Part shown: positions 1-5,475 of the stretch, in pieces
How the letters are laid out: the number at the start of each line of letters is the position of its first letter
Position numbering within the stretch: position 1 is the first letter of the stretch
Source: Candidatus Rokuibacteriota bacterium
Lineage (GTDB): Bacteria; Methylomirabilota; Methylomirabilia; Rokubacteriales; CSP1-6
DNA: 64,000 nucleotides
Direction: 5' to 3'
NCBI GenBank assembly: GCA_003220315.1
Contig: QHSA01000130.1
Coordinates: 292 to 64,291, forward strand
Translations under genes and position numbers: made by a program
The notes under the pieces: model-generated
What the model saw: only the letters and a program-made list of their open reading frames with translations
Told to the model about the DNA's origin: nothing
Databases searched by the model: none

Positions 1-1472
1 AGGAGCCGGCCGAGGGAGTCCTGGAGCAGGAGCGCCGGCAGGGCCACCGTCCTCACCCCGCCGTGGCCCAGCTCCGCCGCATCCGCGTAGAGCTGCGCCC
101 TGAGCCACTCGACGTGGGCGCGGTTCTCCGCGTCCTTCCACCACTGGCGGATCATCTTCTTGCCCCAGTACCGGATCGTCACGTAGTACAGGTCGCGCTT
201 CAGGAGCTTCTGGGCGATCCCGCGCCAGGAGTAGAACTTCTCCATCGCCTTGATCGCGCCCATCTGCAGCTCGTAGGGGCTGATCCTGCGCGGTTGGTGG
301 ACGACGTGGTGGCCGTCGTAGAATTGCCAGTTCCGGCTGATGACGTACTTCTCACCCTGGGCGTAGATCGTGTCGTAGTCGGGCGACCCCGGGATCGGCG
401 TCAGGATCATGAACTGGATCGAGTCGATGTCGTGCTTGAGCGCGAAGTCCGCGGTCGCGTCGATCGTCTCCAGGTCGTCCTCGTCCGAGCCCACCACGAA
501 CATCCCGTGGATACTGATCCCGTAGGCGTGGAAGCGCTCGATCGAGCGCTCGATCTTGCCGAGATCCTGCTTCTTGTTGAAGAGCTTGAGCGTTCGAGGA
601 TTGATCGACTCGAAGCCGACGTAGACGTTGAAGCAGTTCGAGTCGCGCATGAGCTGGAGGAGCTCCGGGTCGTCCACCGTCTCGGTCCGCACCTGCGCGC
701 CCCACATCGGCGTCAAGTCCCGCGCGATCATTCCGTGGAGCAGCTCCTTCACACGCTTCTTGTTCGCCGTGAAGATGTCGTCGGCAAAGAACGTGTAGGC
801 GTTCCCCTTGTGGACCCCGAGCTCCTCCAGCACGCGCGCGACCGAGTGGGTCCGGAAGGCGTGGCCGTACATGCCCGGAACCGAGCAGAAGGTGCACGAG
901 AAGGGGCAGCCCCGCGACGTGGCGATCGAGACGACGCCACCGGGCTTCCAGCCCGCGATGAGGTGGTAGTCCGGGATCGGGTTGACGTCGAGGTTCGGGA
1001 TCTTCGGGCGCTCCGGGTTGTGGACCGCCCGGCCACCCACCAGATAGGAGAGGTTCTGAATCTTCTCGAACCCCGCGCCCCCCTGGATGGCCTCGACGAG
1101 CTCCTGGAACGCGAACTCGCCCTCGCCGCGGACGACGAAGTCCGCGTGCTCGAGCCCCTCGTCGGGCAGGAAGCTCGTGTGGGTACCACCGATCACGGCG
1201 ATGGCGCCGGCCGCCCGCACCTGGTCCGCCAGCCGATACGACTGCGGCGCCGTGGAGGTGATGGCCGAGATCGCCACGAGGTCGGCGGAGAGCACCTCGT
1301 TCATGTCGACCGGGTGGATGTCCTCGATGTACACGCGGACGTCGTACCCTTTGGCCCGCATGATCGTCGCGAGAAGGACCGAGCCGAGCCGCGGGATGCA
1401 GACGCGGCTGTAGATGTGCAGATGCGTCGACTTTGGCTCGACGAACACAAGCTTCCTCAGGGTGCGTGTCAT
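1..1472 (-). CDS. B12-binding-domain radical SAM protein (class B rSAM-like); partial, 3' end lies beyond the window edge
   Basis: Reverse-strand translation from the ATG (complement of 1470-1472) gives MTRTLRKLVFVEPKSTHLHIYSRVC...AIAVIGGTHTSFLP (cobalamin-binding-like N-terminus) followed by SRGCPFSCTFCSV (CxxxCxxC radical-SAM motif). Not in the ORF track because it runs off the window. Confidence 0.8.
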   Translation of the reverse strand, partial: MTRTLRKLVFVEPKSTHLHIYSRVCIPRLGSVLLATIMRAKGYDVRVYIEDIHPVDMNEVLSADLVAISAITSTAPQSYRLADQVRAAGAIAVIGGTHTSFLPDEGLEHADFVVRGEGEFAFQELVEAIQGGAGFEKIQNLSYLVGGRAVHNPERPKIPNLDVNPIPDYHLIAGWKPGGVVSIATSRGCPFSCTFCSVPGMYGHAFRTHSVARVLEELGVHKGNAYTFFADDIFTANKKRVKELLHGMIARDLTPMWGAQVRTETVDDPELLQLMRDSNCFNVYVGFESINPRTLKLFNKKQDLGKIERSIERFHAYGISIHGMFVVGSDEDDLETIDATADFALKHDIDSIQFMILTPIPGSPDYDTIYAQGEKYVISRNWQFYDGHHVVHQPRRISPYELQMGAIKAMEKFYSWRGIAQKLLKRDLYYVTIRYWGKKMIRQWWKDAENRAHVEWLRAQLYADAAELGHGGVRTVALPALLLQDSLGRL

Positions 1473-1521
1473 CGGCGAAGTCTCCCGGGTTGGCTGTGAG
1501 ACAGCAGGTGCAAGTTGGCCC

Positions 1522-1550
1522 ACGCTACATCGGGGGCGCGGCGATGTCAA
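1522..1550 (-). promoter_or_regulatory. Putative sigma70-type promoter for the radical SAM gene (TTGACA-N17-TAGCGT on the minus strand)
   Basis: Minus-strand read is TTGACAtcgccgcgcccccgatgTAGCGT, about 50 nt upstream of the rSAM ATG. A GGGAGA SD lies before the ATG. Confidence 0.35.
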
Positions 1551-1627
1551 TTCTCGCACGAGAGGGGTGTCCCACCATATCTGGGGCTCGACCGGCCCTC
1601 ACGACCCCCATATCTTGGATTTTCCCC

Positions 1628-1656
1628 TTGACACGATTCCGGCGCCTCACTAGCAT
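1628..1656 (+). promoter_or_regulatory. Putative sigma70-type promoter (TTGACA-N17-TAGCAT) driving the tiny ORF
   Basis: cTTGACAcgattccggcgcctcacTAGCATg with exact 17-nt spacing. It is divergent from the rSAM promoter about 100 bp away and uses the same TAGCNT -10 flavour. Confidence 0.4.
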
Positions 1657-1704
1657 GCCGAGCAGAAGTACCCAGCGAACACGTGACCCGAAGGAGGTGA
1701 GTGG

Positions 1705-1740
1705 GTGAAGAAGAAGGCGGCGAAGAAGAAAAAGAAGTAA
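1705..1740 (+). CDS. Tiny ORF encoding the 11-aa poly-lysine peptide MKKKAAKKKKK (GTG start)
   Basis: AAGGAGGT SD at 1691-1698, a 6-nt spacer, then GTG AAG AAG AAG GCG GCG AAG AAG AAA AAG AAG TAA. An in-frame TGA 18 nt upstream fixes the start. Confidence 0.3.
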   Translation: MKKKAAKKKKK

Positions 1741-1788
1741 GCGCCGATGAGGCGCCCGGCCCTGTCGTGCTCCCGCTGCGACAGGGCC
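1741..1788. terminator. Two adjacent GC hairpins (gcgcc-gatga-ggcgc, then an 11-bp perfect stem cggccctgtcg/cgacagggccg); likely a bidirectional terminator for the tiny ORF and the convergent nrdR
   Basis: Inverted repeats read directly from the sequence. There is no strong U-tract, which is common in GC-rich genomes. Confidence 0.35.
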
Positions 1789-1836
1789 GTGCCGTCTCAT
1801 TGAGCTGAGTTGGGAGACCCCCCTCAGACTCCCCCG

Positions 1837-2343
1837 CTACTTGGCCTTCGCGGCCGCCTTGGGCTTCCCGGCGGTCGCCGTCTTGGCCTTGTCGTGGCTC
1901 TGGAGGCCCTTCACCTCCTCGACGAACTGGCCGACGTCCTTGAACTTCCGGTAGACCGACGCGAAGCGCACGTAGGCCACGGGGTCGAGCTTCTGGAGGT
2001 GCTCCATGACGATCTTGCCCAGCTCCTCGCTCGAGATCTCCTTCTCGGTGCGGTCGTACAGCTGCGACTCGATCTCGCCGACGACGTCGTCGACCGCCTG
2101 GACGCCGACCGACCGTTTCTCGCACGATTTCAGGATCGACGCGCGGAGCTTCTGGCGGTCGAAGGGCTCGCGCCGGCCGTCCCGCTTGACGACGTGCGGC
2201 AGGACGTCCTCGATGTACTCGTAGGTCGTGTACCGCCGGTGGCACTTGAGGCACTCGCGCCGGCGTCGGATGAACTCGCCGTCACGCCCGACCCGCGAGT
2301 CGACCACCCGATCTTCCGTGTGACCGCAAAACGGGCATTTCAC
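1837..2343 (-). CDS. nrdR: Transcriptional repressor NrdR
   Basis: MKCPFCGH...CLKCHRRYTTYE zinc ribbon plus ATP-cone; GTG start. Confidence 0.95.
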   Translation of the reverse strand: MKCPFCGHTEDRVVDSRVGRDGEFIRRRRECLKCHRRYTTYEYIEDVLPHVVKRDGRREPFDRQKLRASILKSCEKRSVGVQAVDDVVGEIESQLYDRTEKEISSEELGKIVMEHLQKLDPVAYVRFASVYRKFKDVGQFVEEVKGLQSHDKAKTATAGKPKAAAKAK

Positions 2344-2359
2344 CGGCCGAGCCCCCCTC

Positions 2360-3607
2360 TCAGGCGCGCCGCTCCGTGTAGAGCGGGAAGCGGTTCGTCA
2401 GCTCCTGGACCTGGTCGCGAACCGAGGCTTCCACCGACGCCGCGGCGGGCTTCGACAGCACGCGGTCGATCACGCTCGCGATCTCGGCCATCTCCGGCTC
2501 GCGCATCCCGCGTGTGGTGACGGCGGGCGTGCCGAGGCGGATGCCGCTCGTGACCATGGGGCTTTTCGTCTCGAACGGGATCGTGTTCTTGTTCACGGTG
2601 ATCCACGCACGGTCGAGCGCCTCCTGGGCCTCCTTGCCGGTGAGGCCGCGGCCCGTGAGGTCGACCAGGATCAGGTGGGTGTCGGTTCCGCCGGAGACGA
2701 GCCGGAAGCCGCGTGCCAGGAGCGCCGCGGCGAGCGCCTTCGCGTTCTTCACGATCTGCTTCTGGTACTCGCGCCACGCGGGGCGGAGCGCCTCCTTGAA
2801 CGCGACCGCCTTCGCCGCGATGACGTGCATCAAGGGTCCGCCCTGGACGCCGGGCATCACGGTCTTGTCGAGGGCCTGGGCGTGCTCGGTCCGGCACATG
2901 ACCATCCCGCCGCGCGGCCCGCGCAGCGTCTTGTGCGTCGTGGTCGTGACGAAGTCGGCGACGCCGACCGGTGAAGGGTGGAGCCCGGCCGCGACGAGGC
3001 CCGCCGGGTGGGCGATGTCGGCCATCAGAGACGCGCCCACCTCGCGCGCAATCTCGCCGAAGGGCTTGAAGTCGATCGCCCGCGGGAACGCGGAGCCGCC
3101 GGCGATGATGAGCTTGGGGCGGTGCGTCTTCGCGAGGTCGCGCACCTCGTCGAGGTCGATCAGCTCGGTGTCCTTCCGCACGCCGTAGGCGACGATCGAG
3201 TAGAGCTTCCCCGAATAGTTCACCGGGCTCCCGGCGGTGAGGTGGCCTCCGTGGGAGAGGTTCGGGCCGAGGACGGTGTCGCCGGGCTTGAGGACGGTGA
3301 AGTAGACCGCCATGTTGGCCTGGGCGCCCGAGTGGGGCTGGACGTTGGCGTGCTGGGCGCCGAACAGCTCCTTGGCCCGCGCGATGGCCAGGTCCTCGAC
3401 GACGTCCACGACCTCGCAGCCGCCGTAGTAGCGGCGTCCCGGGTATCCCTCCGCGTACTTGTTGGTCAGCACGGAGCCCATCGCCTCCAGCACCGCCTCG
3501 GAGACGAAGTTCTCGGAGGCGATCAGCTCGAGGTTCCGGTGCTGGCGCTGGGCCTCCTCGCGGAGCGCCTTGGCGACGTCGGGATCGACGTCAGCGAGAC
3601 GAGGCAT
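2360..3607 (-). CDS. glyA: Serine hydroxymethyltransferase
   Basis: The track ORF (2360..3877) was trimmed to [13 protein letters not shown]...; PLP-lysine motif [14 protein letters not shown]; 415 aa. Confidence 0.95.
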
Positions 3608-4185: not shown

Positions 4186-5475
4186 TCACCGTACCATCGC
4201 GCCGTAGACGAGGTTCTTGTAGAGCATCCGCGTATGGATGCGGTTGGAGGGCGACTGCGCCATGAGAATCCCGACGAGCCCCTCCTTCGGATCGATCCAG
4301 AAGCTCGTCCCCCAGACGCCCGCCCACATGGCGTCGCCCTTCGAGCCCGGCACCCAGGCGACGCCCTCATGCAGCCGCACGCCGAAGCCCAGACCGAAGC
4401 CGTAGCCCGGGCCCGTCGTCGCGATCGTCGACCCGCCCATGCCGACCGTGTGGTCGGAGAGCATGAACTCCACGGTCTTCTTCGAGAGGTAGCGCCGGCC
4501 CTGGTACTCGCCGCCGTTCACGACCATCTGCGCGAACTTCAGATAGTCCTCGGTCGTCCCCACGAGGCCCGCGCCGCCCTTGAAGTAGCTCTTGCCGGCC
4601 GGGTTTTCCAGGATGCGGTAGGACTTGTTCAGCGTCGCCTTCTGCGGGTCGGAGTCGAGCGCCTCGGCGAGCCGCCCGACCTTCTCCTTGGCCGCCCAGA
4701 ACGCCGTGTCCTTCATGCCGAGCGGCTCGAAGAGCATGTCCCTGAGCAGCTGGTCGAGCGGCTTCTTGGTGGTGCGCTCGAGCAGGAGGCCCAGGACGTC
4801 GACCGCGATCGAGTACTCCCAGAAGGTGCCGGGCTGGTGGGCGAGCGGGATCTGCCCCAACCGCTTCAGCATCTCGTCACCGGTGATATCGACGTCGCGT
4901 GCCTCGATGTTCGCGTTCTCGTACATCTCCTTGATGCGGGGCGACTTGGTGCCGCCGGCATAGACGAACCCTGCGGTGTGGCGCATCAGGTCCTGAACGG
5001 TGATGGGCCGGGTGACCGGTACGTCTTCGGTCGTGACCTTACCGTCCGGGTCGGCCTTCTGGGTCTCGACCCTCATCTCCTTGAGCTCGGGCAGCCAGGC
5101 CGAGATCGGATCGTTGAGCTTGAGGCTCCCCTGTTCGATCAGCATCATCGCCGCGACCGTGACGATCGGCTTCGTCATCGACGCCAGGCGGAAGAGCGCG
5201 TCCCTCGTCATGGGCTTGCTCTTCTGAGCGTCGAGGAAGCCGTGCGTCTCGTAGTGCACGATCGTCCCTCGCCGCGCGACGAGCGTCACGGCGCCGGGCA
5301 AGATGCCCTTGTCGATCTGCTCTTTCATGACCGGCGCGATGCGTGCCAACCGCTCACGCGACATTCCCGCGATCTCGTCCTTCGCGGCGGGCTGTGCGCC
5401 TTGGGCGTTGGCGCCGGCCGCCAGCATCACGGCAGCCGTCATCACGGCGAAGAGTCGGAGAGCTTTCGTTGTCAC
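4186..5475 (-). CDS. Secreted serine hydrolase of the beta-lactamase / PBP4* (class C-like) family
   Basis: GTG start preceded by GGAGGAG; signal peptide TTKALRLFAVMTAAVMLAAGANA; S-x-x-K motif ASMTKP. Confidence 0.85.
   Translation of the reverse strand: MTTKALRLFAVMTAAVMLAAGANAQGAQPAAKDEIAGMSRERLARIAPVMKEQIDKGILPGAVTLVARRGTIVHYETHGFLDAQKSKPMTRDALFRLASMTKPIVTVAAMMLIEQGSLKLNDPISAWLPELKEMRVETQKADPDGKVTTEDVPVTRPITVQDLMRHTAGFVYAGGTKSPRIKEMYENANIEARDVDITGDEMLKRLGQIPLAHQPGTFWEYSIAVDVLGLLLERTTKKPLDQLLRDMLFEPLGMKDTAFWAAKEKVGRLAEALDSDPQKATLNKSYRILENPAGKSYFKGGAGLVGTTEDYLKFAQMVVNGGEYQGRRYLSKKTVEFMLSDHTVGMGGSTIATTGPGYGFGLGFGVRLHEGVAWVPGSKGDAMWAGVWGTSFWIDPKEGLVGILMAQSPSNRIHTRMLYKNLVYGAMVR

Follow-up and report, generated by a model that had tools for sequence, protein, structure and literature searches.

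The leaders of the amino-acid attenuators (e.g. hisL, pheL, thrL, leuL, ilvL and trpL) are very short open reading frames (ORFs) that have a strong ribosome binding site and lie 5' of a co-directional gene; codons for a single amino acid, in a run whose length varies between species, make up most of the ORF, and GC-rich hairpins are located directly 3' of the ORF. Here we describe a cassette with the same layout in a 64,000-nucleotide stretch of DNA from Candidatus Rokuibacteriota (contig QHSA01000130.1; referred to as the window and numbered from its first letter), where a micro-ORF encodes the 11-residue peptide MKKKAAKKKKK. The cassette differs from the attenuator leaders in that its amino acid is lysine, in that neither an antiterminator alternative nor a U-run past the hairpin was detected, and in that the regulated gene encodes a transporter instead of being a biosynthetic operon, and is missing in the window. 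To our knowledge no Lys-codon attenuator is known and none was found in the literature searched, in which we also found no description of a poly-Lys leader or of an EamA leader. On balance we favour interpreting the feature as the 5' leader cassette of an EamA/drug-metabolite transporter (DMT) unit that is widespread in Rokubacteria and subject to ribosome-dependent cis-control, and with high confidence we regard the micro-gene in the window as the orphaned leader ORF of an EamA gene that has been deleted.

The cassette also resembles other known systems. As in the leader ORFs that act through Rho or coupling (tnaC, speFL and toiL), a leader ORF and a spacer are followed by a gene with poor initiation signals, and as in several of these systems the regulated product is a transporter; moreover, C is abundant and G scarce in the spacer (42% and 22%, respectively, of the RNA from the second hairpin, h2, to transporter position +45 nt), as in the rut sites of Rho-acting leaders. 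Described cases include an intergenic small ORF that promotes translation of an mgtA-type transporter (PMC8092293) and conditional termination involving an upstream ORF (uORF) and Rho in M. tuberculosis (bioRxiv 10.1101/2022.06.01.494293). Unlike leaders of the tnaC/speFL/toiL type, the cassette has no specific arrest motif, its Rho dependence or coupling is a proposal made here, and two stable hairpins separate its stop codon from the C-rich tract. With ermCL/ermDL and bmrB of BmrCD (PMC4191407) it shares a short uORF before a transporter, here of the DMT ("drug/metabolite") superfamily, and polybasic tripeptides resembling macrolide arrest motifs; unlike in these leaders, the coding region lies outside the downstream hairpins and no link to an antibiotic is seen. 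Like the rnTrpL small RNA (sRNA) and its peptide peTrpL (PMC7298713, PMC7968998), the cassette could yield a short terminated RNA and a peptide of 10-14 amino acids (aa), and it persists in some genomes without a target in cis. Unlike peTrpL, its peptide is low-complexity poly-Lys and a role in trans is a candidate one. Finally, bL37, bS22 and Thx are tiny basic ribosome-associated proteins, which the micro-ORF resembles in being very small, very basic, stand-alone and strongly expressed-looking; unlike them it has 10-14 residues of low complexity with a variable number of Lys, is confined to one transporter locus and is absent from many close relatives.

In the window (Table 1) the promoter, with TTGACA at 1628-1633 and TAGCAT at 1651-1656 on the plus strand and a 17-nt spacer, matches 10 of 12 consensus positions, and a promoter scan of the 1.2-kb region gave this site (one versus 0.1 expected) and no second promoter-like site there. 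The AAGGAGGT part of the Shine-Dalgarno (SD) motif ends 6 nt 5' of the GTG start, and the codons read GTG AAG AAG AAG GCG GCG AAG AAG AAA AAG AAG TAA, the TAA being at 1738-1740. A first-pass annotation had described the promoter, the SD motif, the GTG start, the 11 codons and the TAA, and direct reading together with scans confirmed every element, as well as the in-frame TGA (1684-1686), which is separated from the GTG by 18 nt. The run of Lys codons is far beyond chance: the window contains a single match to the pattern AARAARAAR-N6-AAR x5, whereas 100 dinucleotide shuffles gave 0. Neither strand of the 64 kb has another K-rich micro-ORF, the K-run, h2 and the element at 1812-1835 each occur once there, and no tRNA genes were found in the same 64 kb.

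Table 1. Features of the leader cassette and its surroundings in the window
Feature	Position	Strand	Basis
Upstream promoter motif CCCCCATATCTTGGATTTTCCCC, A/T-rich, with UP-like (G/T)ATTTT directly 5' of the -35	1605-1627	+	conserved
Sigma-70-type promoter TTGACA-N17-TAGCAT; predicted transcription start site near 1663	1628-1656	+	promoter scan
Extended Shine-Dalgarno AAGGAGGTGA	1691-1700	+	10-nt complement of the 16S 3' end
Leader micro-ORF GTG...TAA, MKKKAAKKKKK	1705-1740	+	direct reading, homologous ORFs
Hairpin h1, GCGCC-GATGA-GGCGC, 5 bp, starting at the first base past the stop	1741-1755	+	sequence/folds
Hairpin h2, 11 bp, stem arms CGGCCCTGTCG / CGACAGGGCCG, 11-nt loop	1757-1789	+	sequence/folds
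Post-h2 pyrimidine motif CCGTCTC (CCATCTC in most relatives)	1792-1798	+	alignment columns ≥90% conserved
Remnant of the first ~10 transporter codons, degenerate (ATG to CTG); deletion junction ~1834-1836	1805-1836	+	blastn against locus L093
Terminator-like site: h1 in reverse, then T-rich tail ACTTCTTTTT, the complement of the Lys codons	1739-1757	-	terminator scan

The NrdR protein encoded beside the cassette is identical on many soil-metagenome contigs, and by NrdR the closest genomic relatives are metagenome-assembled genomes of Candidatus Rokubacteria/Methylomirabilota. When the fetched loci were scanned, a short K-rich ORF antisense to nrdR was present at nearly every Rokubacteria locus and at 0 of 60 loci of other phyla; examples are MKKKATKKKKKK, MAKKKKAAKKKKK, MAKKKAAKKKKKK and MAKKKATKKKK, each preceded by a GGAGGTGA-type SD motif. 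Loci of related genomes pooled with metagenomic transporter loci gave 58 distinct versions with the consensus M(A)KKK(K)A(A/T)KKKK(K)(K) followed by a stop. Specifically, a strong SD motif is present in 58 of 58 leaders, with GGNGGTGA invariant in an alignment of 51 sequences; TTGACR-N16-18-TANNNT is located 33-60 nt 5' of the start codon in 55, and (G/T)ATTTT-N4 lies directly 5' of TTGACA in nearly all. Translation would start at ATG (39 leaders) or GTG (19) and stop at TAA (47) or TAG (11) and never at TGA, whereas the long ORFs in the window with high GC content at third codon positions (GC3) end with TGA 27 times, TAG 15 times and TAA once. Every version has 7-10 Lys codons within a total of 10-14 codons, and the lengths (33, 36, 39, 42 or 45 nt) are all multiples of three, which is weaker evidence than it looks since slippage of AAG units keeps the frame without selection. 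Lys is replaced at five of 499 positions (four Arg and one Met) and never by Glu, Gln or Asn, despite 70% GC pressure. Nearly all versions have A, T or S as central residues, with Ala encoded by GCG (97), GCC (42), GCA (3) and GCT (1) and Thr by ACG or ACC, and most of the variation is synonymous (AAG versus AAA, and the third position of GCN). Eleven near-identical contigs (98% identity) have diverged too little to split constraint from recency. These patterns mark the micro-ORF as genuine, conserved and translated-looking; its most deeply conserved regulatory-looking feature, even where the hairpin sequences differ, is the Lys run. Lack of conservation in relatives had been named in the first-pass annotation as grounds for giving up the ORF; conserved K/A-rich versions were instead found.

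In eight species-level genomes the K-rich ORF is located not next to nrdR but directly 5' of, and co-directional with, a gene for a protein of ~290 aa that belongs to the EamA/DMT family (PF00892, E 3e-39). A metagenome scan using the transporter alignment gave 80 loci (54-99% identity), and in ~55 of the ~72 metagenomic loci with enough upstream DNA the leader is found 50-170 nt 5' of the transporter start. The earlier suggestion of a regulatory uORF was thus right as to the kind of element, the ORF being in most relatives a leader directly 5' of an EamA/DMT transporter gene. The transporter start is constantly 16 codons before a WAGN motif, and an SD-like motif is missing there in 36-37 of 45 loci, compared with its presence in six of eight neighbouring genes. 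Because the hairpins fill most of the 50-170-nt gap and a scan of two loci (L170 and L026) revealed no promoter between leader and transporter, the two must, judging from the sequence, be co-transcribed in the intact relatives. A search for transporter homologues returned proteins of which the best 120 of 394 (E ≤ 1e-20) are all at least 64% identical and generically named "DMT-like permease"; among these 120 there was neither a functional clue nor any reach outside the clade.

Counted from the leader, the transporter is in frame 0 at 27 loci, in frame -1 at nine and in frame +1 at six, and stops intervene in eight. A leader-transporter fusion by frameshift, readthrough or bypass was rejected: the frame varies, stops intervene, indels in the spacer do not come in threes, and there is no conserved slippery run. 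In the window, the -1 frame of the leader holds a 35-codon GTG ORF (1701-1808, plus strand) that opens with poly-Glu (GEEEGGEEEKE…), and in L011 the -1 frame is open into the transporter, a frame relation not conserved across loci. Three loci, L121, L140 and L151, have no in-frame ATG, GTG or TTG before the conserved N-terminus of the transporter, the frame being open back to the leader stop; they have an AGGAGA SD motif 9 nt 5' of an ATC at the expected transporter start, which suggests a non-canonical start or another initiation route in this clade. Moreover, many metagenomic loci with the transporter only seem leaderless. At L095, L108, L113, L115 and similar transporter-only loci a TATCTT-type -10-like hexamer is located 6-8 nt before the ATG without an SD motif, suggesting leaderless mRNAs. 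The CATATCTTGG motif of the transporter-only loci is also present in the window just 5' of the leader -35 (1609-1618).

Comparison (blastn) with L093, the closest intact relative, accounts for the arrangement in the window. Window 1302-1834 corresponds to L093 975-1509 (88%) and window 1836-2400 to L093 2374-2938 (95%), and the 864 bp in between (L093 1510-2373) constitute the transporter coding sequence (CDS), which is missing from the window; no other copy of the transporter is present in the window. Window 1805-1836 reads CTGAGTTGGGAGACCCCCCTCAGACTCCCCCG and the matching stretch of L093 ATGAGTCGGGCGACCCCCCTCAAGCACCCC, and the remnant adjoins the nrdR stop. The stand-alone gene of the first-pass annotation is therefore not ancestral, the regulated transporter having been removed by an 864-bp deletion as mapped against L093, and with a nucleotide identity to intact L093 of 88-95% the deletion is recent. 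Within this transporter 5' remnant, TGAGTTGGGAGACCCCCCTCAGACTCCCCC is unique in the window; in L092 (~880-945) the TGAGTTGGGAGACCCCCCTCAGACTCCCCC element is partly tandem-duplicated between h2 and the transporter start.

Among 20 species-level genomes, eight have leader and transporter, six the leader only (the window genome, L012, L014, L018, L020 and L022), one the transporter only and four neither. The junction sequences of the leader-only genomes are all different; L022 has lost its promoter and in L020 the terminal K has become M, and the remaining orphan leaders are intact. At L023, one of the "neither" loci, the last ~17 transporter codons (…GVYLATRPA, followed by the stop) are kept beside nrdR (~4441-4560), so that an independent deletion must have taken the leader and most of the transporter there. 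The four states of the locus and the 3' remnant in L023 therefore point to a deletion-prone locus, and the comparison shows that the transporter CDS was deleted independently in the window genome and in at least five other species. In the window the cassette has no gene to regulate, although its transcription and translation are probably still possible; as a recent relic it would have at most secondary roles, i.e. as a short transcript or peptide and in nrdR termination.

The spacer of the intact loci contains two hairpins. The 11-bp hairpin reported after the ORF by the first-pass annotation is present, although its position is 1757-1789 and not 1756-1788, i.e. off by one, and h1, the 5-bp hairpin between the stop codon and h2, was absent from that annotation. 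Folding of the main clade shows h1 as a GCGCC/GGCGC-type stem with a loop of 4-8 nt that varies freely, and h2 with a stem of 11-12 bp; the loop of h2 and the CCATCTC motif are nearly invariant, as is the stem in 49 sequences. In the divergent clade (L025, L026 and L029) another strong hairpin takes the place of h2 and the first hairpin is different or absent. The tail 3' of h2 is UUCCAUCUC or GCGCUUUGG, with no T-run on the sense strand, for which terminator calling gave nothing in the window, L170 or L026. We note that h1 and h2 fold independently and that clade-specific alternative stems are seen but are not conserved. RNAalifold pairs the post-h2 motif with the leader SD motif (GGGGUG:CAUCUC), a long-range helix that we rejected as the changes are wobble-compatible only, without compensatory pairs. 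In the window clade the post-h2 motif can instead pair with 1745-1755, which lengthens h2; this clade-specific long stem around h2 is seemingly compensated between the window clade and L092 but is broken without compensation in the L141 clade, and was likewise set aside. The models of Rfam 15 matched nothing, whether in the window (at gathering score), in three intact loci (E ≤ 1) or in 12 leaderless loci (E ≤ 0.1).

In relatives the cassette thus appears to be of the leader-ORF kind by its structure, with a co-directional gene downstream on the same transcript, which the window itself lacks. We have not filed it as a classical attenuator because there is no U-run terminator and mutually exclusive structures did not emerge clearly from the folds. 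As a mechanism we propose that ribosomes would load very efficiently on the leader by means of its very strong SD motif, read the 8-10 Lys codons and reach a TAA or TAG stop placed directly against h1. Only the arriving ribosomes would open the structured h1-h2 spacer and be handed over to the SD-less transporter ORF, covering the C-rich, G-poor RNA behind h2; this would amount to coupling or re-initiation, possibly with protection against Rho. Transporter output would then track the supply of Lys-tRNA or the elongation status, which would suit an exporter of basic amino acids. We put forward this hand-over model, with transporter output depending on Lys-tRNA or elongation, tentatively, rating its chances somewhat below even. 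A more specific version is possible but doubtful: the cassette would be the first lysine-codon leader peptide, sensing Lys-tRNA charging or polybasic elongation and gating an SD-less EamA exporter of basic amino acids/amines across Rokubacteria through hairpin-spacer hand-over in place of a terminator/antiterminator switch, with a possible trans role for the transcript or peptide by which it would be maintained in genomes lacking the transporter, the window genome included. The sensing of lysine, polyamines or stalling that the first-pass annotation proposed is plausible.

Several observations weigh against a regulatory leader of this kind. The Lys codons of the leaders are AAG 446 times and AAA 48 times, the same ratio as in the genome (440:39), and with an AAG share (90%) equal to genome usage, selection for slow codons is not evident. 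The absence of a T-run means that h2 does not qualify as a canonical intrinsic terminator, and no mutually exclusive terminator/antiterminator pair was found. When folding was constrained by a ribosome placed on the stop or on codon 3, the change in how accessible the transporter start is was only marginal; the minimum free energies of these ribosome-footprint folds are dominated by probably spurious pairing of the G-rich SD motif with CUC-rich Leu codons. Matches of the transporter to YddG and 2A78 are weak and far below the cut-off, and no substrate is assignable. Finally, six species keep a largely intact leader without the transporter, more than expected of a useless relic, and this persistence could reflect an independent function.

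The best surviving alternative is that the cassette senses nothing: an A-rich, unstructured mini-ORF with a perfect SD motif would recruit ribosomes in a transcript of 70% GC and deliver them to the SD-less transporter and/or block Rho, Lys codons being the most A-rich sense codons. Such a constitutive coupling device, which we regard as unlikely, agrees with the 10-nt SD motif and its invariant GGNGGTGA, with the lack of an SD motif at the transporter, with a Lys codon usage equal to that of the genome and with the failure to detect a switch between alternative structures; in addition, the DMT-only loci look leaderless, making the transporter gene SD-independent anyway. However, GAA, GAG, AGA or AAC would be tolerated in purine-rich, unstructured RNA, yet there is no change from K to E, N or Q in 499 codons, the Lys run reaches the very last codon, beyond the initiation region, and the strict use of TAA/TAG next to h1 hints that it is important where the ribosome terminates. 

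To an independent gene, with the transporter expressed by mere read-through, we give a low probability. It would encode a polycationic micro-peptide and/or an sRNA of ~130 nt ending at h2, acting in trans, for which the trpL attenuator RNA and peTrpL in Sinorhizobium set a precedent (PMC7298713, PMC7968998). The leader-only state in six of 20 species, most with promoter, SD motif, ORF and hairpins intact, fits this explanation, as does conservation of the h2 sequence beyond pairing alone, including its loop and the CCATCTC motif. Yet the cassette is absent from four of 20 species and from many DMT-only loci and is therefore dispensable, it is confined to the transporter position (a single copy at each locus and one in 64 kb), and the peptide is of low complexity with a variable K count. 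The frame could be held by AAG-unit slippage without selection, and the recent date of the deletion in the window likewise speaks against an independent gene.

A sensor of translation stress or antibiotics, in which a ribosome halted on the leader by a drug would turn on expression of an efflux-type DMT transporter in the manner of the erm leaders, bmrB and toiL, is more improbable still. KKK runs fit the "+x+" motif of macrolide-bound ribosome arrest, and the Ala, Thr or Ser found before Lys in the middle of almost all leaders fits the context rules for chloramphenicol/linezolid; both rules, however, derive from E. coli. A member of the drug/metabolite transporter superfamily is encoded downstream, and uORFs that sense ribosome-targeting antibiotics through Rho or attenuation are known (PMC12121999, PMC4191407). 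Against this, nothing points to drug export by the EamA clade, and no segment of the leader pairs with the hairpins, unlike in erm-type attenuators.

The cassette in the window is flanked by a divergent gene for a B12-radical-SAM protein (rSAM; start at 1472, minus strand) and by convergent nrdR (1837-2343, minus strand), as first annotated. By a crude GC3-based gene map, 33 of the 34 genes of the window are minus-strand genes and none on the plus strand precedes the one at ~53.1 kb (~53.1-54.7 kb); the statement that nothing else is coding on the plus strand for about 50 kb therefore holds. The C-terminus of NrdR (window 1837-1890, minus strand) has a Lys/Ala-rich tail (…KAKTATAGKPKAAAKAK) past the ATP-cone, whose length and sequence vary among relatives. 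The terminator-like site on the minus strand is located ~100 nt past nrdR, and the hairpins with the T-rich complement of the Lys codons probably now serve as the nrdR terminator in the window. The same terminator-like by-product is found in L170, an intact locus without nrdR next to it, and because the sequence is conserved in this situation nrdR termination would be a secondary role at most. That there is no gene at all, the hairpins and the Lys run being a (bidirectional) nrdR terminator, as the site at 1757 to 1739 with its T-rich tail might suggest, and ORF, SD motif and promoter having arisen by chance, is highly improbable: the cassette is also conserved at loci where the transporter separates it from nrdR by 0.9-2.9 kb, promoter, SD motif, start, frame and stop are kept in 55-58 of the 58 versions, and the K-run exceeds chance by far. 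Termination alone was accordingly refuted as the primary explanation by conservation that does not depend on nrdR adjacency.

Upstream of the leaders we found rSAM in 20 of the 58 and a co-directional orotate-phosphoribosyltransferase (PRTase)-like gene without rSAM in 36, and one Rokubacteria subclade seems to have gained the rSAM gene by insertion between PRTase gene and leader. The best NCBIfam match of the rSAM gene (L001 4872-6689; window 1-1472, minus strand) is HpnJ (145 bits versus a cut-off of 578), followed by BchE. The link to a ribosomally made peptide with post-translational modifications (RiPP) raised in the first-pass annotation, with the leader as a precursor modified by the divergent rSAM enzyme, has next to no probability and was rejected since co-occurrence is not conserved: in its favour are that the two genes are neighbours in the window and that the rSAM weakly resembles, below threshold, several families, RiPP methyltransferases among them; against it are the neighbour counts above, four loci with rSAM and no leader (L023, L024, L027 and L028), rSAM scores that fall far short of the curated cut-off for all NCBIfam families and the lack of leader/core organisation in an 11-aa poly-Lys peptide.

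The poly-lysine leader ORF family of 10-14 codons, found phylum-wide in Rokubacteria, is apparently an undescribed addition to the ribosome-dependent cis-regulators. It provides a handle on how an uncharacterised EamA clade of an uncultivated soil phylum is regulated, and possibly on what it transports, and close relatives offer natural variants (leader and gene, leader only, gene only and neither) that ease comparative and metatranscriptomic tests. For genome scans in general there is also a caution, namely that a lone micro-gene with a perfectly expressed look can turn out to be an orphan, the 5' end of an operon that was deleted.

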